In this document: positions 4,422-40,817 of the stretch, piece by piece
Position numbering within the stretch: the first letter of the stretch is position 1
Layout: every line of letters begins with the position of its first letter
Origin: a virus
Taxonomy: Duplodnaviria > Caudoviricetes
Direction: 5' to 3' (one strand)
DNA: 45,534 nt
IMG/VR virus record: IMGVR_UViG_3300031965_000055
Coordinates: 1-45,534 of that record
Made by a program: the position numbers and the translations under genes
Notes under the pieces: generated by a model
Seen by the model: the letters and a program-made list of their open reading frames with translations, nothing else
The model's database searches: none
What the model was told of the DNA's origin: nothing

Positions 4422-6307
4422 GAGCGCCTCCGGCGCAACCACGGCTCGCGCGCGGGTGGCTGCGGTGCCGACGGCGGTGTCTCCGGAGAGAGCGCGCGCT
4501 CGAGCGCGACCCAGTCGGTTTCCTTCCAGCGGTCCAGCCCGACCAGGGCCGCCGCAGCCCTGGCATACGCGCGGCAGTCCAGGACGTGGTTCTCTCGGCC
4601 TGGGATCAGCTCCCACTCGAGGTTGACGAAGCCCCGCCGGTTCTTGTGCGAGACCAGGTGCTCGGCGGTCAGTTGCTTGAAATAGTCGTCGTCGTATTCT
4701 GGGAAATGGCAGTAGCCTGGAGGAAAAGGCTCCTCATCGGTGGGCGTGGCCAGCCTCAGCCACCCGTAGAGCTCGCTTTTCGCGACGCTGCCGCAGACCG
4801 GCCAGACCTTGTAGCCGAACACCGGACGCTTGCCGCGCGCGGTCACCTCGACCGACGACGGCGTCCCGATCAGCACGCCCCCGCTCGCCTGTCCCTTGAT
4901 CGCGATGACGCGGTTTAGCGGGTATTTCTTGCACCAGGTGTAGACCGTCTGCGTGTTGTAGCCGCTGTCGACGGCCAGCATGCGGACGGGCATCTCGGCC
5001 CCGTCCTCGTGCGGGTAGACACGCGCGAGCAGCTCGTCGAGCTGCTGCCATGGCCCGCCCTCGAGGTCGGCCGTGTCGCCGGGCAGGACCCCGTAGTCGA
5101 TCGACCACGAGGACTTGCCGCGGCCCCAGGCCACGATCTCGACGATGATCCGGTCCTTCTGCACGTCGGCTCCCGCGGTGAGGACCAGGCCGCCGCGCGG
5201 TACCGTCCCCATCTCGTAACCCGCGCGCCGCTCATACAGCCGCTCCCACTCCGGGGCCTCGCCGCGCTCGCGCCACGTCTCCCCGAGCACGGTGTTCGTG
5301 AACACGCGCAGCTTCGTCGGGTTCTTGTGGACCTTCACAAACTGCTCGGCGATCTCACCCCAGGACATCCAGCCCACGGGCGAGTAGAGCGCCGAGATGT
5401 GATAGCCGCGGTAGCGCTGGTCGGCGTCGGGATCCTGCGCGCGCCACTCGCCGCGCTCGAGCATCTCCGTCTTGGCCCCTTCCTCGATCGGCTCCTCGCA
5501 CGCGCGGCACACGTAGACGGCCTGGGCCGCCGGCCGCCCGAGCTTCGTCCACGTCAGGCGCCCGAACTCGAGCGGTTGCATCGCCCCGCAGTGCGGGCAC
5601 GGCACGTAGTAGAGCCGCTGGTCGGTCGCCTCGTAGGCGCGCTCGATCGCCGAGGAGTCCGCGATCGTGGGCGTGCTCACCTTCAGGCGCTTGCGCCGCG
5701 GGAACGTGCGCTGCCGGGCCTCGGCCAGCTCGATCGGCGAGCCCTCCTCGTCGACGTCCATCGGATAGCCGTCGATCTCGTCGAGCAGCAGCCAGCGCGC
5801 CGGCATCGAGCGCAGGCCGACGGCGCTGTTCGCGCCGGTGATCACGAGCAGCCCGCCCATGAACTCCTTCGACAACATGCTGCTGTGGGCGTCGCGGCTC
5901 CTCGTGTCGCGGCTGCGCGCGTCGGCGACCTTCCCGGTGAGCCGCGGCGTGGCGTCGACGAGCGGCTCGATGCGCTGCCGGCTGAACCGCTTCGCGAGGT
6001 CGACCGTCGGCTGCACCAATAGCGCCGGCCCCGGAGCGTGGTCGATGACGTAGCCGAGCACGTTCAGCAGGACCTCGGACCCGCCGAGCTGCGCGCCCTT
6101 CATCAGCACGACCTCTTCGATCTCCGAGGTCGAGGAAAGGGCGTCCATGATCTCGCGCAGGTAGGGCGTCCGCATGGTGCGCCACTGGCCGGGCTCGGCC
6201 GAGGACTTCTGCGGCAGCACGCGGTGCGCGTCGGCCCACGCGCTGACCGAGATGTCGGGCTCCGGTCGCAGTCCGGATGCCATGCCAGACCACACCTGGT
6301 TACTCAT
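4418..6307 (-). CDS. Terminase large subunit, lambda GpA family
   Basis: RTPYLREIMD, Walker A-like MKGAQLGGSE, Walker B LLLDEIDGYP, VSTPT, YYVPCPHCG, GADVQ, VDSG and NHVLDCRAYA. The ATG at 6307 overlaps the upstream gene's 3' end. Confidence 0.96.
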   Translation of the reverse strand: MSNQVWSGMASGLRPEPDISVSAWADAHRVLPQKSSAEPGQWRTMRTPYLREIMDALSSTSEIEEVVLMKGAQLGGSEVLLNVLGYVIDHAPGPALLVQPTVDLAKRFSRQRIEPLVDATPRLTGKVADARSRDTRSRDAHSSMLSKEFMGGLLVITGANSAVGLRSMPARWLLLDEIDGYPMDVDEEGSPIELAEARQRTFPRRKRLKVSTPTIADSSAIERAYEATDQRLYYVPCPHCGAMQPLEFGRLTWTKLGRPAAQAVYVCRACEEPIEEGAKTEMLERGEWRAQDPDADQRYRGYHISALYSPVGWMSWGEIAEQFVKVHKNPTKLRVFTNTVLGETWRERGEAPEWERLYERRAGYEMGTVPRGGLVLTAGADVQKDRIIVEIVAWGRGKSSWSIDYGVLPGDTADLEGGPWQQLDELLARVYPHEDGAEMPVRMLAVDSGYNTQTVYTWCKKYPLNRVIAIKGQASGGVLIGTPSSVEVTARGKRPVFGYKVWPVCGSVAKSELYGWLRLATPTDEEPFPPGYCHFPEYDDDYFKQLTAEHLVSHKNRRGFVNLEWELIPGRENHVLDCRAYARAAAALVGLDRWKETDWVALERALSPETPPSAPQPPAREPWLRRRRS

Positions 6308-18113: not shown

Positions 18114-19024
18114 GATTCCTCCGCGTCGGGAAGGGAGCGCACGGCGGCGAGGGTAGTCTCGGCGGCCGTCGGTCGGCGGCCCGACGAGGGCGCGCCTCGG
18201 CTCGCGGCGTCGGCGTCACCCATGGCGAGCAGCCGCGCGCCGCGGAGCTTGCTTGTCGCAGTGTCTAGCCAAGGCACGCTGGAGCAGCCGGAGATGTTCG
18301 TGATGACCTGCCCGCCGGGCGTGCGGCTGTGGCGGGCGAGGAGGACATCTCGCGCCATGCCGGTCGCCTGGGCTGCCTCCTCGAGCTCACGCTGACACTC
18401 GACCTGGGCCGCCTTCAGGTTCGCTCGGTCAGCACCCTTCTCCGGAGGCTTCTCGGTCGCGAGCTCGCTCTCGCGCGCGCGCGCTACCTCCCTACCTACC
18501 TCTACCTCCCTACCTACTTCCGCTGGCGGCCGTGCGGGCGGCGGCGCGGTAGCTGTTGGAACAGCCCGCCCGCGATCCGCCTGCGTCTGGATGGGACTAT
18601 CGCCTGACGCCTTAACGCCTTGACGCCTGACGCCTGACGCCTCAGACGGAGAGATACGGTTTTGTGACGGCTCCGTTACCGCAGGCGTTACGGTCAGCGT
18701 TACGGCACCGTTACGCTTGCGCTCACGCAATAGGCGCATCCGCTCGCCTACGTTGATGTCGCCCTCCTGCCACAGTGACCAGTGCTGGACAGCCCACGAA
18801 CCATCTTGCTGCTCAACGAGATGGCCGCCCTTTCGCGCCGCTGCGGCCACACCGCGACCGAGCGCTGTGACAACGTGAGCCCAGGCACGGAACCTCCCCC
18901 GAGGGTCCTGGCGGTTCGCCGCGCAGAACAACTTAATAAGGATGGGCATGTCGGGGTGCTGGTCGATGTTGGGGTCGACCCGGAGGTAGGCCTTCGGAAG
19001 CTGGCCTCGGACACGGGCTGTCAT
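18110..19024 (-). CDS. Putative replication initiator (lambda O-like architecture)
   Basis: N-terminal domain ending W..WQ...ERMR..RERK, then a low-complexity linker encoded by DNA repeats and a C-terminal domain. Confidence 0.55.
   Translation of the reverse strand: MTARVRGQLPKAYLRVDPNIDQHPDMPILIKLFCAANRQDPRGRFRAWAHVVTALGRGVAAAARKGGHLVEQQDGSWAVQHWSLWQEGDINVGERMRLLRERKRNGAVTLTVTPAVTEPSQNRISPSEASGVRRQGVKASGDSPIQTQADRGRAVPTATAPPPARPPAEVGREVEVGREVARARESELATEKPPEKGADRANLKAAQVECQRELEEAAQATGMARDVLLARHSRTPGGQVITNISGCSSVPWLDTATSKLRGARLLAMGDADAASRGAPSSGRRPTAAETTLAAVRSLPDAEES
18484..18714. repeat. Iteron-like repeats, candidate replication origin
   Basis: CGTTAC at 18674, 18686, 18698 and 18709; about 6 TGACGCC-like heptamers at 18600-18643; CTACCTCCCTACCTAC duplicated at 18484-18517. 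Confidence 0.55.
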
Positions 19025-34147: not shown

Positions 34148-36103
34148 TCACAGCGGGGCCAACACCGTCGTGACTCCCAACTCGCTCAGCCCGGCCACGC
34201 CGAGGGTCCAGTACTCCTCAACGAACGCGCGCTGAAGATCGTGCGAAAAGACCGCCAGGCGCGCCTCGAGTAGGGTCATCTCTACGCTCTGGATGTAGTA
34301 GACGCCATTGATACCGGTCATCTCCTCTATGACCGTGATCGGGTCTCCTGGCTCCAGTGAGAGTGCCAGCTCCATCTCGTCGTCGTCGCGTGGTGTCCAC
34401 CGCATGCGCGCGGCCGCGAATCCAGGCGTAGACCACGTGGTCACGATGAACTCGGCGACTGCGTCAGCCACTCCGAATTCGTTCTGGTATGGCATGTCCA
34501 GCGAGACCATGGCCTCGCCCAGGGTGAGGCTGTCCGTGTTTTCTCGCCTGGCGTCGACCTGTGTGTAGTCGTAGATTCCGCGCCCGCGTGCCTGGAGCAG
34601 CGTCACGTACCCGAGCGTGCCGCCGTTGTTCGTGATTTGGAATTCGACCTCATTCGCCGAGAACACGGCCGTGACCGTGAAGTCCGCGGTGAGGTCTGCA
34701 CCAGACCCGTTCGCGTTGGCGTTCATCAAAAAGTCTGTGGTGGCGACCGGCGCGACCATGTCTGTCCCGCCGACCTTCGTGGTGCGGTCAGAGCTCGAGC
34801 TGTAGCGCCCGGTGATCTTGACCGTTTGACCAGCAACGACTTCGGGCGTGATCTTGGCAGGCTTTGAGTACAGCACGGTGTCTGCCGCCGCGTCTACGAT
34901 TCGCGGGTGTGCTGACACCTTGGCCACGTTCCTGATATCGAACGTGGGGTCTAGGTCCTGCATCGCTTCGTCAAACACAGCCAGTGGCAACGGCGTCAGA
35001 CGCGCGCTGCGCTTCTCGAATCGCAGAACCATTCCACCCGTGGTGCTTCCGCGCAGGTAGCAGCGCCCGAACTCGCTCTGCGCAATCCTCTGAATCTCGG
35101 TTAGGGCGGACACCGGCCGATCAGCGCGGGAATCCAGCGAGTAGGGAAAGGTCGAATCGGCGGCGTCGAATGTGAGCGTGGCGGGCTGCGCAGGCACGGC
35201 CTGGACCACAGCCGTCAGCGCCTCGTCCGCGCGCTTGTCGATCTGGACCGGCACTCGCAACAGATGGTTGGCCGCCTCGCTCATCCAGTCCACAGCATCG
35301 CAGACGGTGCGACGCTCCAGGTATCGGCCAGACGTGGGATTCGCGTTCTGGATGCGGCCGACGAACTTGGTGTAGGTGGCCGCCCCCAGACGATACCCGT
35401 AACGGACATTGATACCTCGACCGAATCCAGCGCGGGCCCTTGGTCCTCCGGGCGTGTACCAGCCGAGCGTCTCACCCTCGTTGCTCTCGCTGTTGTCGAG
35501 AGCGAAGCTGAGGGTTCCGATTTGTCCGACCAGGTCGGTCGGACCAGAGCTGGCGATTCCGTATTGGACCTTCCCCGCTGGAGACACGAGAAAATCGACC
35601 TCCACCCAATTCGGCGAGAACGGGTAGAGAATGACGTCGCTCAGTGTGGCGCCCAGCGTGTAGACGTGGCACCGCACGCGCAGAGGATAGGTGGGCGCGG
35701 TCAAGCTCGTGTAGTACAACACGCCGTTCCTGAAGTACTTGACCACGCCGGCGTCGACCTCCACGCGCAGCATGTCTCCGGTCATGTACGACTCCCCCGT
35801 TTCCTTGAGCACGCCGGCCTCATAGACGTGCAGCCCGGTGAGCGCATCAAGGCGGAAAGCGAAGTCGGGGTCACCGTAGGTCGAATCGTCGCCGAGGCCG
35901 ATAGCGCGATCCGTGTTCATCTCGCTGGCGATGAACTCCATGTAGCAGTCGCCAGAGGCGATCGTGCGAGACGACACTGCGCCGCCGTTCCACGCGTCGC
36001 CGCCGCTCGTCTTCTGAAGATCGTTACCCGTCACCGTCACGTTGACGGGGCTCTCCCACGCAACATCCGGCAGGTCCATCTCCAGGACGTGACCGTCGCT
36101 CAC
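34148..36103 (-). CDS. Minor tail (hub/tip) protein
   Basis: Follows the tape measure gene. G.LSF.LDN, F.G.I, IAQSE.G, L.LEPGD.I.V and C-terminal W.LG..G.SELG.TT.L. Confidence 0.7.
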   Translation of the reverse strand: MSDGHVLEMDLPDVAWESPVNVTVTGNDLQKTSGGDAWNGGAVSSRTIASGDCYMEFIASEMNTDRAIGLGDDSTYGDPDFAFRLDALTGLHVYEAGVLKETGESYMTGDMLRVEVDAGVVKYFRNGVLYYTSLTAPTYPLRVRCHVYTLGATLSDVILYPFSPNWVEVDFLVSPAGKVQYGIASSGPTDLVGQIGTLSFALDNSESNEGETLGWYTPGGPRARAGFGRGINVRYGYRLGAATYTKFVGRIQNANPTSGRYLERRTVCDAVDWMSEAANHLLRVPVQIDKRADEALTAVVQAVPAQPATLTFDAADSTFPYSLDSRADRPVSALTEIQRIAQSEFGRCYLRGSTTGGMVLRFEKRSARLTPLPLAVFDEAMQDLDPTFDIRNVAKVSAHPRIVDAAADTVLYSKPAKITPEVVAGQTVKITGRYSSSSDRTTKVGGTDMVAPVATTDFLMNANANGSGADLTADFTVTAVFSANEVEFQITNNGGTLGYVTLLQARGRGIYDYTQVDARRENTDSLTLGEAMVSLDMPYQNEFGVADAVAEFIVTTWSTPGFAAARMRWTPRDDDEMELALSLEPGDPITVIEEMTGINGVYYIQSVEMTLLEARLAVFSHDLQRAFVEEYWTLGVAGLSELGVTTVLAPL

Positions 36104-38310
36104 GCTCTGGCCTGCTGGAGCACGCCCCTCAACATGATCGGCAGGAGGCGCCGCTCGCGTGCAGTCTCATCGCGCATCGCGCGGAGGTACGACGTGTTCT
36201 CCTTCACAGCATCGACCATCCCTGCATCCCGCGTCATGAGCGCGGCCTCGACCCTGCCAGCCACGGAGTCGGCCTGGGTCTCTGTCACCACGGCCTCGCG
36301 TCCGTGGAGCATGGTCGCTGTCCCGGATCCGAAGTTTTCGAAGCGCGTCCCCTCGGTGCCCTCGGCGAACCCCTGGCCCCGGATCTGATTGACCTTCGCG
36401 TAGCCCGCGGCCAGCGTGGCCGCGGCGGCCAGCGCGCCCAGAGGCCAGCCCCCGCCGTGCTTGAAGGCCGCCACAGCGGCCGCGATCGTGTCTATGATCG
36501 CAGTCCCGATTGCAATGGTCTTGTTTTTGTAGAAGAGGCTGACCAGGATCGTAGACACCTGACTTGCGATCGTCTGGAAGAGAGCCACGGTGAGCTGTGC
36601 GCTCGTCCCGTTCAGCTCGGCTTCCTTTTTCTTGTACTCCTCGTGGGCTCTTTGCAACTCGCTGTAGGTGAACTCCCCGCTCACCTTCATGTCGTCGTAG
36701 AGCTGCTTCGCCCTGTCTGCCGTCTCCTCCATTGCCGCACGCGTCTGGAACCCGGCCTGTTTCGCGGCCTCGGCGATCGTCAGTTGCGCCCCGACCGCCG
36801 CATCCCTCATCAGGGTGTACTTCTCGTTGACCATGGCCACGAGCTTTTCGTACTCTGCGATGTTGGCGAAGGCGAACTCCTGCAGTCCGCCAATTTCTTT
36901 TTCCCGGTTGATCTCGATTTCTGCAAGCCGCTGCTCGAGGCCGCTCAGGTTCGCGAGCGTTAGCTGGTCCTGTAGCTCCACAAACTTCGCGAGGATCTGG
37001 GTGTTCATGTCCCAAATGAACATCCCGGACTTGCTCGACGCGTCCGCCATAGCGGCAATCTGTTCGGCTGCCATGGCCGCCGCAGTGGCCATCTGCGTAG
37101 TCGCGCCCTGCGCCGCGACCATCGCGTCACGCGTCTTGCCCAGCACCGCCTGCACGGAATCAAAGACGGCGTTCTGCCTCCCGGCAGCGTCGACAGCCTC
37201 CGTTGCTTGGTCCCGGAAACCTTGACCGAGGTTGGTCAGGTCTGTCCCGATTCCCTTGATGCTGGTCTCCAGACCCTTGAACTTCTCGCCAACGCCGGGG
37301 ATGAGGGTCGCAGCCTCGACGAGGCTGCCGAACGACGTGACGAGATCGCCGAGGAGGTTGATCTGGAATCCCACCACCTCGTTGAACAGGACCTTGAGAC
37401 CGTTCCAGATGTTAGAGATCTGCCTCCCGGCCCCGACAGCGACACTCGCCGCGTCGACGAGGAAGATCGCGAATTGATTCACGTAACCCATCAGTGCGTT
37501 GACGGTGTCCTGAGAGTTTGAACCGAAGGCGCCCTGGATCGCCTCCATGATCGAGTCCATGCCCGCAGCCACGACGGGCGACGTTGCGATCGCCTTGCCC
37601 AAACTGTCGACGAAGTTGGTCACCATCACCCGGCCCTGCTGCACCCGATCGGCGAACGTCAGGTGGATTCCGCCGAGCTCGGCCACCTTCTTCTGTGCCG
37701 CGTCCATCGCAGCGTTGTAGAACGCGGTCTTCTTCTCTGCCTCCGTGAGTTGCGATGCCGACTTGCCGATCTGGGCTGCGTACGCCTCATTCGCCTGGCC
37801 GACCTTCACCGTGAGGCCGAGGTTGTCCAGGATCAGAGGCGAGCTGCGACCCAGCGCCGTCGTCAGATCGTCGAGAGACTTTTTCGCGTCTTGACCCATC
37901 GCCCGGCCGAGCACGACAGCCGACTGCGCGAGTCCACCCATCGACTGTGCTGTGACCGGCAGGCCGAGCAGGATGGCCTTGTTGGCCGCGGCCATCAAGT
38001 CGAAGTCGCTGATCAATCCCCTGGTCGCCCCCTGGGACGCGGCCAGCATCGCAGCCCCCGTCTCCCCGACCGATCCAGAGAGCTTGTCGAAAGCGGCCTC
38101 CATCGAGGCGACCTTCCCGCCATGCACGCCGAGCAGTGTGATCGCCCCCGCGGCCGATGCGATCGCCCCGGCCGCAAGCCCGGCAAACTGCGCGACGGCG
38201 GTGAACGATTTACTCGACACGCCCAATGCCTTCGCGACCTTATCGATGGGCCCGCTGAACTGGTCGTTTAAGGAAATGACGCCGTGAAGTTCGCCAATAG
38301 AAATACTCAC
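36100..38310 (-). CDS. Tail tape measure protein
   Basis: 736 aa, Ala-rich and helical, with ALGRSSPLILDNLG and a C-terminal LHGREAV. Downstream of the tail chaperones; AGGAGG RBS. Confidence 0.9.
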   Translation of the reverse strand: MSISIGELHGVISLNDQFSGPIDKVAKALGVSSKSFTAVAQFAGLAAGAIASAAGAITLLGVHGGKVASMEAAFDKLSGSVGETGAAMLAASQGATRGLISDFDLMAAANKAILLGLPVTAQSMGGLAQSAVVLGRAMGQDAKKSLDDLTTALGRSSPLILDNLGLTVKVGQANEAYAAQIGKSASQLTEAEKKTAFYNAAMDAAQKKVAELGGIHLTFADRVQQGRVMVTNFVDSLGKAIATSPVVAAGMDSIMEAIQGAFGSNSQDTVNALMGYVNQFAIFLVDAASVAVGAGRQISNIWNGLKVLFNEVVGFQINLLGDLVTSFGSLVEAATLIPGVGEKFKGLETSIKGIGTDLTNLGQGFRDQATEAVDAAGRQNAVFDSVQAVLGKTRDAMVAAQGATTQMATAAAMAAEQIAAMADASSKSGMFIWDMNTQILAKFVELQDQLTLANLSGLEQRLAEIEINREKEIGGLQEFAFANIAEYEKLVAMVNEKYTLMRDAAVGAQLTIAEAAKQAGFQTRAAMEETADRAKQLYDDMKVSGEFTYSELQRAHEEYKKKEAELNGTSAQLTVALFQTIASQVSTILVSLFYKNKTIAIGTAIIDTIAAAVAAFKHGGGWPLGALAAAATLAAGYAKVNQIRGQGFAEGTEGTRFENFGSGTATMLHGREAVVTETQADSVAGRVEAALMTRDAGMVDAVKENTSYLRAMRDETARERRLLPIMLRGVLQQARA

Positions 38311-38312
38311 GC

Positions 38313-38342
38313 TTGACCTCCTATGACCATTGGTCGTAGGAT
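38313..38342 (+). promoter_or_regulatory. Promoter with palindromic operator for the RAMP cassette
   Basis: TTGACC-18-TAGGAT, with the inverted repeat TCCTATGACCA-T-TGGTCGTAGGA (10/11) at 38319-38341. Confidence 0.7.
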
Positions 38343-38393
38343 CATTTCTGCGTGCCGGGCGCGCTCCGCGCCTGGCGAGAGAGGAGGCCAGGC

Positions 38394-39158
38394 ATGGTCA
38401 CGACAAAGGCGAATGAAGAGATCAGCATTCTGGAGGTCAGCCAGGGGCGATTCGAATGCTGCATTCTGGGCAGGACGCCGCTCATCATGAACCGGATGAG
38501 CGAGAAGGCGGGGCGCGAACTGCTGTTGCCCCGCAGGAAGACCGCAGCCGACAAAGCGGGATCCCTGAAACACAATCCCCCGGAGGAGTTCCGTGCCAGC
38601 GCGTACCGGGCTGTGGGTGAAGATGTGCCCACGCGACTGCTGTTGCTGGCGACGGCCTTCAAGGGGGCCATGCGATCCGTGGCCGTCGATATCCCGGGCG
38701 CGGCCAAGGCTCAGATCGGCCGCCTCACTTACGTCGACGGTGACCACGTGTCCATCTACGGGATCCCGAAACTTCTGATGAGCATCACTCGCAGCGCGGA
38801 CATGAACCGTACCCCCGACGTTCGGACCCGCGCAATCGTCCCGCACTGGGCCTGCCGGCTGGGAGTGACCTACGTCAAGCCCATCCTGCGCGAGCAAGCG
38901 GTCGCCAACCTCCTGGCCGCCGCCGGAATCATGCGCGGCGTTGGTGACTGGCGGCCCGAGAAGGGCGCCGGAAACTATGGGCAGTTCGAACTTGTCAGCC
39001 AAGACGACGCGAAGTTCAAGGCGATCCTCAGCGGGGGCGGAATGGCCGCACAAGATGCGGCCCTGGCCAAGCCGGAGTGCTACGACGCCGAGTCTCACGA
39101 TCTCCTCGCATGGTTCACGACCACCGCATCGGAGCGAGGCTTCAAGGTGGTTGCGTGA
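38394..39158 (+). CDS. Cas7/RAMP-like RNA-binding protein (putative guide-binding effector)
   Basis: N-terminal strand I.G.TPLIMN, AFKGAM helix, central R....PDVR.R and a C-terminal Gly-rich loop AG...GVGDWRPEKGAGNYGQF, which is the RAMP layout. GAGGAGG RBS. Confidence 0.75.
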   Translation: MVTTKANEEISILEVSQGRFECCILGRTPLIMNRMSEKAGRELLLPRRKTAADKAGSLKHNPPEEFRASAYRAVGEDVPTRLLLLATAFKGAMRSVAVDIPGAAKAQIGRLTYVDGDHVSIYGIPKLLMSITRSADMNRTPDVRTRAIVPHWACRLGVTYVKPILREQAVANLLAAAGIMRGVGDWRPEKGAGNYGQFELVSQDDAKFKAILSGGGMAAQDAALAKPECYDAESHDLLAWFTTTASERGFKVVA

Positions 39159-39640
39159 TGCAAGAGGAAAGCATGTTGGCTGTCCGGCGGGCCATCCAGG
39201 CGGTCGAGGATGCCGAGGGACGGATCACCCCGGATGCTGTCGTACGACAGGCGACGGACCCAGAGAGCCCGCTCCACAGGTATTTCGAGTGGGACGACCA
39301 GAAGGCGGGCCACTCCTACCGCATCGACCAGGCGCGACGGCTCATCAGGCTTATCGAAGTCGTGGTCACCACGGATACGCGGATCATCACCGTCCCGCTC
39401 TACGTACGCGACGCCAAGGCAGAAGGGGATGAGCAGGGATACGTTTCCCTGCCCCGCCTCCGGACGGAGCCAGACACGGCCCGCGAGATGTTGCGAACGG
39501 AGTTCTCGCGAGCTTCCGCATGCCTGACGCGCGCCGAAGACTTGGCCGACGCGCTCGGGTTGCGGAAAGAGGTCGCGGCCGCGGCGCGCAGTGTGGAGAG
39601 GGTCCGAAGAAAGATCGAACGTCAGCCGCGGGCGAACTGA
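39158..39640 (+). CDS. Conserved partner protein of the RAMP-like gene
   Basis: TGATG coupling; GRITPDAVV..A.DPESPLHRYFEWDD..A...YR..QAR.LI. Confidence 0.75.
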   Translation: MQEESMLAVRRAIQAVEDAEGRITPDAVVRQATDPESPLHRYFEWDDQKAGHSYRIDQARRLIRLIEVVVTTDTRIITVPLYVRDAKAEGDEQGYVSLPRLRTEPDTAREMLRTEFSRASACLTRAEDLADALGLRKEVAAAARSVERVRRKIERQPRAN

Positions 39641-39883
39641 GGCAGGCGCGGCTTGGCGGGGCACGACGGGGCGAGGTCGAGCGAGGCTGGGCTTGGCGAG
39701 GCAGGTAGAGCGAGGCCGGGCAACGCGAGGCCGGGTGTGGCATGACACGGCGGGGCGAGGCGGGCGACGTTCGGCACGGTCTGGCGCGGGCTGGTAAGGC
39801 ATGGCTTGGCCCGGCGCGGCAGGCAAGGCGGGGCCTGGCATGGTTCGGAGAGGCTTGGTGAGGTCTGGCGTGGTTCGGCGGGT
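39641..39883 (+). ncRNA. Array of four 59-nt units, each GGCR + 11x(GGY-NN); putative guide RNAs
   Basis: Units start at 39641, 39700, 39759 and 39818, with a closing GGCG at 39877. Of 44 pentamers, 36 begin with exact GGY and 8 differ by one base. The NN positions are variable. Confidence 0.85.
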
Positions 39884-40072
39884 ATGGACCGAGAAACACT
39901 GAAGGCGCATCGAAAACGACTTGGGCTGTCGCTCGCAGAAGCGGCGGCCCAGGTCCACGTTGCCGCACGCACCTGGGCGCGCTGGGAGAGCAGCGAGCGA
40001 CATATGCCTGAGTCTGTGGCTCATCTCTTCTGCATGCTCAACAAAATCAAATACCATCGCCCCCAGCGCTAG
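39884..40072 (+). CDS. Xre-family HTH regulator
   Basis: LKAHRKRLGLSLAEAAAQVHVAARTWARWESSER.MP. Confidence 0.85.
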   Translation: MDRETLKAHRKRLGLSLAEAAAQVHVAARTWARWESSERHMPESVAHLFCMLNKIKYHRPQR

Positions 40073-40452
40073 GGGCGCCTCACGCGCTCGCCCCTCTCGG
40101 GTTTGTTGTGGGTCGCCATGAGATCGCGCATCACGGCCTTGATCTGCTCGACAGCTTGGGCGGGTGTGCGCTGCGCCTGGCCTGGCTGAGGAGCCTCGCC
40201 AAATCGCAGGACACAATCCTTGAGCGGGATCTGGGGCGAGTTCTTACGGCGATGCACGTTGTAGATGGCCTGCACGATGCTCGCGGCTCTGAGGTCGTCG
40301 CGCTCTTCGTCGAATGGTTCGAGGTCCGCATAGGCGCGCCACTCCTGGAGTTGCCTGATCGTCATGCCACGGAGCATGCGGTCGACGTTCAAATGACCGA
40401 GCCTCAAGGCCAGGCGGTGAGCGAAGCGGCGGGCGCCGCTCCGCTCTAGACG
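40069..40452 (-). CDS. Tail assembly chaperone, frameshift extension (gpT-like)
   Basis: The -1 frame reads RLERSGARRFAHRLALRLG..NVD.ML..M...QL.EW.AY...EPF...R.DLRAA. Confidence 0.8.
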   Translation of the reverse strand, partial: RLERSGARRFAHRLALRLGHLNVDRMLRGMTIRQLQEWRAYADLEPFDEERDDLRAASIVQAIYNVHRRKNSPQIPLKDCVLRFGEAPQPGQAQRTPAQAVEQIKAVMRDLMATHNKPERGERVRRP

Positions 40453-40817
40453 TTTTTTACGGGCTCCTCCTCCGACCAGCCCTGTAGAGTCAGCGCGATC
40501 TTCTGTAGACGGATCAAGACCTTTTGACTGCGACTTCGCAGCCGGGCAATTTGATCCGGCGCCGTGAAAAGGCGCTCCCCGGCAGATGTCACCAGACTCG
40601 ATGCGAGCAGGAGGAAAATGGCCTCGTGCCCCTTCTCCTTCGACAACGCGAGCATCTTTTCGTTGAGCTCGAGCCCCTCATCAGCGGGTAGCACCCGCAT
40701 GTACACCGAGCCGTTCCACTCGGGGACATGCACCTCACGGATCTCAAGATCGGACGCGGCCAGGATGTCATCGGCCGTGAGCTGCTTCGTCGCTTCGGTC
40801 ATTTCGAGCGGCTCCAT
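40446..40817 (-). CDS. Tail assembly chaperone (gpG-like)
   Basis: LTADDILAASDL...V.VPEWNG.V..R, ending at the slippery site A AAA AAC. Confidence 0.85.
   Translation of the reverse strand: MEPLEMTEATKQLTADDILAASDLEIREVHVPEWNGSVYMRVLPADEGLELNEKMLALSKEKGHEAIFLLLASSLVTSAGERLFTAPDQIARLRSRSQKVLIRLQKIALTLQGWSEEEPVKNV
40452..40458 (-). other. Programmed -1 ribosomal frameshift site
   Basis: GTA AAA AAC GTC TAG contains an XXXYYYZ heptamer just before the stop, and the -1 frame is open. Confidence 0.8.

Follow-up and report, generated by a model that had tools for sequence, protein, structure and literature searches.

The window analysed here is the whole stretch of 45,534 bases of a phage record with an estimated completeness of 93%. 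A 1.75-kb insert occupies the tail chaperone/TMP junction, on the opposite strand to both flanks, and carries a gene for a predicted guide-binding protein, an accessory gene, an array of four guide units and a small HTH gene. The features are listed below.

36100..38310, minus strand: tape measure protein (TMP) gene, 736 aa, matching PHROGs tape measure families (E 5e-9 and 1e-6)
37990..38022, minus strand: codons 97-107 of the phage's own TMP, corresponding to the footprint of guide 4 (codon reading)
38313..38342, plus strand: predicted sigma-70-type promoter of the cassette, TTGACC-18-TAGGAT (one found against 0.3 expected)
38394..39158, plus strand: vipr gene, predicted RAMP-fold guide-binding protein, 254 aa (family profile against PDB 36pp; structure model)
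39158..39640, plus strand: vap-like accessory gene, 160 aa (phrog_15946, unknown function)
39641..39699, plus strand: vrRNA unit 1, 11 NN (array parsing)
39700..39758, plus strand: vrRNA unit 2, 11 NN (array parsing)
39759..39817, plus strand: vrRNA unit 3, predicted target the lambda GpA-type terminase large subunit of other phages (L369, 21/22)
39818..39876, plus strand: vrRNA unit 4, predicted target the TMP gene of related phages (L099/G010, 20/22; L257, 19/22)
39884..40072, plus strand: small HTH gene, 62 aa (Pfam HTH_31, E 8e-8; Aca2_YdiL, E 1e-5)
40069..40817, minus strand: tail assembly chaperone genes, bordering the insert at its other end (Pfam and PHROGs searches)
5855..5887, minus strand: homolog of the unit 3 target in the phage's own terminase, HSSMLSKEFMG, 8/22 (alignment)

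The TMP gene lies 3' of the tail chaperone genes, an order that is syntenic with phage record G010, where the same junction holds no insert and the chaperone stop is 4 nt from the TMP start. The predicted cassette promoter is overlapped by a 10-pair palindrome (38319-38341) and, at its -35 box, by the TMP ribosome-binding site of the other strand. The palindrome is a possible HTH operator, and the 62-aa HTH protein a possible autoregulator of the cassette; a promoter palindrome together with a terminal Aca2/YdiL-like HTH gene resembles the acr-aca layout for autoregulation. The cassette (38311-40068) is antisense within the late tail operon, so that tail transcription reading through it would yield RNA complementary to the guides. 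The 160-aa accessory protein had no Pfam match, and the viral clusters into which it falls are without a family. Elsewhere in the window, a cluster of short tandem repeats (18484-18715; CTAC, CGCCTGA and CGTTACGGCAG types) is perhaps an origin or a low-complexity coding stretch.

A profile built from 59 homologs of the 254-aa protein matched the solved SUSP1 Vipr (PDB 36pp) at E 7.6e-6. The match covers residues 138-185, from the thumb Arg (R138) to the G-loop GVGDWR, and includes the equivalents of D177-W178-R179. The structure model of the protein (pLDDT 86.9) resembles the Csm3 and Cmr RAMP folds, aligning with Csm3 over 150 residues (Z 8.9, rmsd 3.6; Foldseek E 1e-6); SUSP1 Vipr was not among the matches of the structure search, whose library extends to April 2026. 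The published VIPR system reads its targets with a 1-nt skip aligned to the wobble position, silences competing phages and has no self hits at 80% (10.64898/2026.04.26.720920). All of the corresponding features that we looked for are present here: a stand-alone RAMP homolog with thumb and G-loop, an adjacent non-coding GGY/NN tract of 9-16 steps (four units of 11 steps), a minimal phage-borne locus of vipr and an accessory gene, and targets of at least 80% under a 1-nt skip that falls on the wobble base (unit 3, 21/22; unit 4, 20/22, both in codon register). Self targets of at least 80% were absent, the best own-window scores of the four units being 15, 15, 16 and 15 of 22 in a record estimated to be 93% complete. 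The structured 3' tail per guide that marks the SUSP1-like type II was not found, since each unit follows directly on the previous one, with a 4-nt slip and without a tail, and the region 3' of unit 4 folds no better than shuffles (z -0.12); staggered VIPR arrays are described in the legend of fig. S18 of the same preprint (10.64898/2026.04.26.720920). No cas genes were seen in the cassette, and a repeat-spacer array is absent. Judged from sequence and model, the cassette belongs to the VIPR type. The first-pass annotation had concluded that the guide reads DNA two bases at a time and skips the wobble base. That conclusion agrees with the published VIPR rule (10.64898/2026.04.26.720920), and the wobble-skip code itself is thus already known and not new.

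The array (39641-39876) consists of four 59-nt units, each with a 4-nt leader followed by 11 GGY/NN steps. Unit 4 starts at 39818 with the leader GGCA, and its dinucleotides are AA GG CT AT TC GA TT GA CT GT TC. Units 1 to 3 had no peptide match within the window above chance. Unit 1 was found in none of 351 sampled genomes at two or fewer mismatches, its best score in the collected loci (18/22) lying at the null level, and it may be structural or inactive; it folds as a long hairpin, better than shuffles (z -3.2). Two 18/22 matches were rejected as targets of unit 2 and treated as chance, with 0/4 outer bases in agreement. The 18-base pattern of unit 3 had one match, which extends to 21/22 in the GpA-type terminase gene of L369. 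At the homologous site the window's own terminase scores 8/22, and the alignment indicates that it avoids guide 3 through ordinary protein divergence.

Guide 4 has a counterpart inside the window. TMP codons 97-107 (38022-37990) read AGG GGA TTG ATC AGC GAC TTC GAC TTG ATG GCC, encoding RGLISDFDLMA, and agree with guide 4 at 15/22 bases. Residues 98-105 are all compatible with the guide. The four base mismatches within these eight residues are silent family switches only (TTG twice, AGC), and the TMP Leu codons 89, 114, 115 and 117 are CTG or CTC. All of these readings, from the letters of unit 4 to the run of eight residues, the synonymous core mismatches and the nearby Leu codons, had been given in the first-pass annotation and held when read again. 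The shuffled-guide test that it had proposed gave a divided answer. A base score of at least 15 was reached by 256 of 400 shuffled guides, and two further window sites score 15 with unit 4, so the base-level self match was dropped as evidence. At the peptide level, in contrast, a run of eight compatible residues was obtained with 0 of 400 shuffles and eight compatible residues in total with only one, while the frequency-weighted peptide score gave p=0.009 genome-wide and p=0.001 when limited to 2.5 kb around the array. Skip lengths of 0 and 2 for unit 4, compared within the window only, were rejected, their match being no better than that of skip 1.

The next subject is the target in other phages, which the same annotation had placed in the TMP gene of a relative. 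The 22-base pattern of unit 4 had no exact match in the IMG/VR viral contigs, the metagenome contigs or the GTDB genome contigs, but a match of 20/22 was obtained in a homologous TMP gene. The 16-base core had 15 matches in viral contigs, four of them at the corresponding position of TMP genes, where they represent three distinct sites. The best, L099 of record G010, scores 20/22, including all of the first 18 read bases, and sits at the homologous TMP codons. A non-TMP site (L096) also reaches 20/22 among these 15 preselected core matches, and the score alone is therefore not unique. Seven core matches (L089, L091, L093, L094, L095, L100 and L101) belong to another protein family with a GLISDFEL-like motif and score 17/22. 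The 164 TMP-homolog loci that we collected include 158 that cover the site, corresponding to 135 distinct sites; at least 18/22 was reached at six of the 135 (L099/G010 at 20/22, L257 at 19/22 and four more at 18/22), which supports the proposed aim of guide 4. One TMP homolog (L081:1560-2102) has an in-frame stop within the aligned region. Record G010 is complete and shares the gene order of the window across the head and tail genes, and a search with the window's Vipr found no match in it; two sets of TMP-homolog records, of 10 and 21, likewise gave none with this query, most of these records being incomplete. At TMP position 97 the guide reads Lys, the residue most frequent there among close homologs (22/49). 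The last two dinucleotides of unit 4 (Val-Ser) have one base mismatch each in G010 and fit no homolog well, Met occupying TMP position 106 at 105 of the 135 homologous sites. The true target of guide 4 may be unsampled, or the last steps may stay unpaired; according to the accessible part of the structural preprint, the SUSP1 complex engages from the 3' end (10.64898/2026.04.26.720927).

At the own TMP site, Arg97 (AGG), Leu99 (TTG), Ser101 (AGC) and Leu105 (TTG) all use the minor family. Among the 38 Leu, Ser and Arg codons of TMP residues 55-235, the minor family accounts for 4/4 inside the footprint and 1/34 outside it (Fisher p 7e-5); against the rest of the whole gene, where it accounts for 28/134, the p value is 0.002. 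Among 2128 comparable windows of 11 codons, taken from 17 long ORFs, six are entirely of the minor family, and they fall at three sites, of which the own TMP footprint is one. Compared with G010, the shared Leu and Ser codons are switched at 3/3 positions inside the footprint and 0/28 outside; the other homologs show 1 to 8 switches against the own TMP outside the footprint, among 24-27. If the own TMP carried CTN/TCN/CTN, it would score 19/22, above the published 80% line, rather than its actual 15/22. Thus, the earlier claim that self is recoded has gained statistical support, as a codon pattern linked to the guide that also recurs in other phages. The annotation had named the use of TTG and AGC by cassette-free TMP homologs as a ground against it, and this ground holds in part. 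Among 49 homologs of at least 50% identity, the minor family occurs at the four positions in 1/9, 2/34, 5/26 and 5/35 cases, so that these Leu and Ser codons are found singly (2/34, 5/26, 5/35); in contrast, none of the 19 homolog sites with Leu-Ser-Leu has all three switched, and one has two switched. A less common codon is also present with its difference at a skipped position, Gly98 being GGA (9/72). The closest TMP homolog is 74% identical, and no relative above this identity was found that could polarise the codon change (L190, the window's own contig, was left out of the search). The GenBank phage searches returned distant homologs only, and one DNA sequencing run, possibly the source, showed no variants at the TMP site. 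Among the sequencing runs listed, no RNA run contained the sequence.

The distribution of this pattern was then investigated in other Vipr-bearing phages. Of 154 loci from the Vipr search, 80 were kept, and 49 of their contigs were taken, some cut at 20 or 40 kb. Guides of 8-14 steps were parsed in 44 of these 49 other contigs, making 238 with the window's four; read in both orientations, they gave 476 readings, each scored against the long frames of its own genome. Genome-wide, 10 of the 476 readings reached p 0.005 against 2.4 expected, and for five of these 10 top matches the array was no more than 2.5 kb away, where 1.2 would be expected. In the local scan, limited to 2.5 kb around the own array, six of 476 reached p<=0.001 against 0.5 expected, all in sense orientation, while the same guides scored against foreign neighbourhoods gave 1 of 1428 against 1.4 expected. 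Besides the window, the cases concern two prohead proteases (G043, G036), an AAA ATPase (G062), vipr itself (G057) and a long ORF without a Pfam match that we take to be a terminase (G068). In these five phages, a small set chosen from the top of the scan, the own codon was switched in five of the six cases in which a CT, TC or CG of the guide faces an unchanged residue, against an expectation of 0.97 by genome usage (P 4e-4) and 0.62 by gene usage (P 2e-5). Their self scores are 75-85% (15/20, 17/22, 21/26, 16/20 and 17/20), and at such scores there is real doubt as to the degree of protection from these changes.

One comparison with relatives comes from G057 (L325:11324-12289), whose guide matches the vipr 3' end of relatives L052 and L055 at 18/20, with the first 18/18, and its own vipr at 16/20; the own copy departs by an Ala-to-Ser change and a CGN-to-AGG switch. 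For G043, G062, G036 and G068, no collected homolog exceeded the self score in a comparison that left out one locus, G194. At several positions the guides of these four phages follow the family consensus and self does not. No viral contig matched the 18-base pattern taken from the guide of G043. The guide of G043 (L290:5868-7811) spells a prohead protease motif, the gene lying 345 nt past the array, and its own protease has TTG, AGT and two amino-acid changes. The guide of G062 (L337:15416-16450) agrees at 10 of 13 residues with the AAA ATPase encoded directly 3' of the array, where the own Leu is TTA. A switch of the same type, here against the window's guide, occurs in G033 (L271:6-2573), a phage with a 78%-identical Vipr: its terminase agrees at 9 of 11 unit 3 residues (18/22) and has AGC at the Ser that unit 3 reads as TC. 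The arrays of L015, L017 and L021 have very low-complexity variable positions and internal duplications, which suggests array growth by slippage in some Vipr-linked arrays.

Based on these results, we consider it probable that guide 4 of this VIPR cassette is directed against the TMP gene of relatives, the own copy being spared by Leu, Ser and Arg family switches. Vipr would coat the unit 4 RNA, assuming that it is expressed and processed, and the complex would bind the TMP gene of a co-infecting or resident relative, two bases per codon. Binding would block TMP transcription, by homology with SUSP1. The guide skips codon position 3, and the two codon families of the six-codon amino acids Leu, Ser and Arg differ at positions 1-2; silent escape is therefore limited to these three amino acids. 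The own TMP would keep nearly the same peptide while using the second family at every such codon of the footprint, so that the carrier appears to have used all four possible positions, one of them as a Lys-to-Arg change. The switches likely lower self-binding enough to spare the own TMP, on the premise that binding is lost at 15/22, and selection by the guide would have fixed them. That the codon switches have a guide-linked cause is very probable, and the balance tips, less firmly, toward a TMP gene that changed after the guide arrived.

The position of the cassette brings in a tentative reading that adds to this explanation and does not exclude it, in which a weapon and a resistant allele are linked: when the cassette passes from one phage to a related one, it takes along the recoded end of the essential gene beside it. 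On this premise, recombinants without the recoded end would silence themselves, and cassette and allele would for that reason spread together. A distance of 290 nt separates the self site from the edge of the cassette, the G010 junction has no insert, and self-homologous matches concentrate beside arrays. T4 free-standing endonucleases likewise mostly target the gene adjoining their insertion and cause marker exclusion, as the accessible part of an article states (PMC2988022). By this analogy one may speculate that cassette and resistant allele move together, as those endonucleases act next door. Nevertheless, the family searches found no nuclease domain in the 160-aa accessory protein, co-transfer and a recombination breakpoint are only putative, two of 50 Vipr records carry this TMP family with no second TMP-adjacent cassette seen, and no array was present in the flanks of any TMP-homolog locus examined. 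That VIPR cassettes would be weapon-plus-antidote modules, with the double families of Leu, Ser and Arg as the self/non-self mark of an RNA-guided allele-specific drive, is an equally tentative suggestion.

A less probable account, to which we give perhaps a minor share, is that the codons existed beforehand and that, among guides made against relatives, only those mismatching the own copy survived. A surviving guide at a peptide-identical site must face switches, and such filtering thus predicts the conditional excess as well. Minor codons do occur singly in TMP homologs, two other all-minor sites exist in the own genome without a guide, and unit 3 escapes through plain divergence (8/22). However, at 6/2128 all-minor windows, less than one such guide would be expected among 238, and about five excess cases were seen; filtering alone also leaves the adjacency unexplained (5/10 top matches within 2.5 kb against 1.2 expected). 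We favour recoding, with somewhat better than even confidence, over filtering, which we hold unlikely, because windows that are already all-minor are rare and adjacency would not follow from filtering.

Two further accounts are very improbable. Weak binding of guide 4 to the own TMP, tuning tail gene expression, would suit the eight consecutive matching residues, the site adjoining the cassette and the 75-85% self matches of other phages, but relatives match better (20/22 against 15/22), 15/22 is the level of shuffled guides, and the mismatches fall at the codons that permit silent escape. Just as remote is a chance match or a different origin of the pattern, for instance a short tract recombined from a donor of lower GC or a constraint on the local sequence, with a guide aimed elsewhere (e.g., at the GLISDFEL family): the chance-level base match, the GGA of Gly98 and that family's 17/22 score and 7 of the 15 core matches would fit, but the peptide run was reached by 0/400 shuffles, TMP homologs score better, and other phages show the same pattern in unrelated genes, the foreign control being clean.

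Returning to the recoded TMP site, we note that VIPR has no PAM and that its wobble skip has been described as closing silent escape, which makes the aiming of a guide at a gene shared with rivals a puzzle. We suggest that Leu, Ser and Arg, with their six codons each, leave a silent loophole, and the own and G010 sites are a natural matched pair that makes it directly testable. Such a test would define the mismatch tolerance and escape routes of VIPR for tool users; the accessible parts of the VIPR preprints gave no figure for this tolerance. Targets could also be found from one genome, by translating a guide and searching the neighbouring proteins. If the linkage holds, it would be an RNA-guided counterpart to marker exclusion by homing endonucleases.

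Compared with known systems, the cassette is like VIPR (10.64898/2026.04.26.720920, 10.64898/2026.04.26.720927) in its RAMP-fold protein with the G-loop GVGDWR, its one accessory gene, its GGY/NN repeats of 9-16 steps in a staggered array, the 1-nt wobble skip, targets in other phages and self matches below 80%. Unlike the SUSP1-type system it has no structured 3' tail per unit and adds an Aca2-like HTH gene, and unlike published VIPR it is predicted to target structural genes, those of related tailed phages. In the window the homologous site carries silent switches, whereas the VIPR paper gives only the lack of a self hit of at least 80% (10.64898/2026.04.26.720920). According to the accessible part of a later preprint (10.64898/2026.10.15.759431), SUSP1-family vrRNAs are aimed at genes of competitors, vipr among them, those directed at other vrRNAs have lower scores at their own locus, and escape is stated to need changes at amino-acid-determining positions, self-avoidance being non-coding; in the window, by comparison, the proposed escape is silent, uses the Leu, Ser and Arg families and lies in an essential coding gene beside the cassette. 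The accessible VIPR literature, its supplementary tables with possible TMP targets or self comparisons apart, held no account of six-codon switching or cassette-adjacent targets. Thus, the system is known, and the proposed silent six-codon escape in a linked gene is new. The RAMP fold is shared with class 1 CRISPR-Cas (Csm3/Cmr4/Cas7), which pairs contiguously, whereas the window's VIPR pairs with gaps and has no repeat-spacer array. Like the free-standing homing endonucleases of T4 (seg/mob), as the accessible part of the article describes them (PMC2988022), this is a small cassette between conserved phage genes that would attack the neighbouring gene of relatives, and in those relatives the target gene does adjoin the insertion site. 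The seg/mob enzymes act through protein-guided cutting and gene conversion, whereas the window's cassette is predicted to act by RNA-guided binding, no nuclease was detected, and homing is only conjectural.
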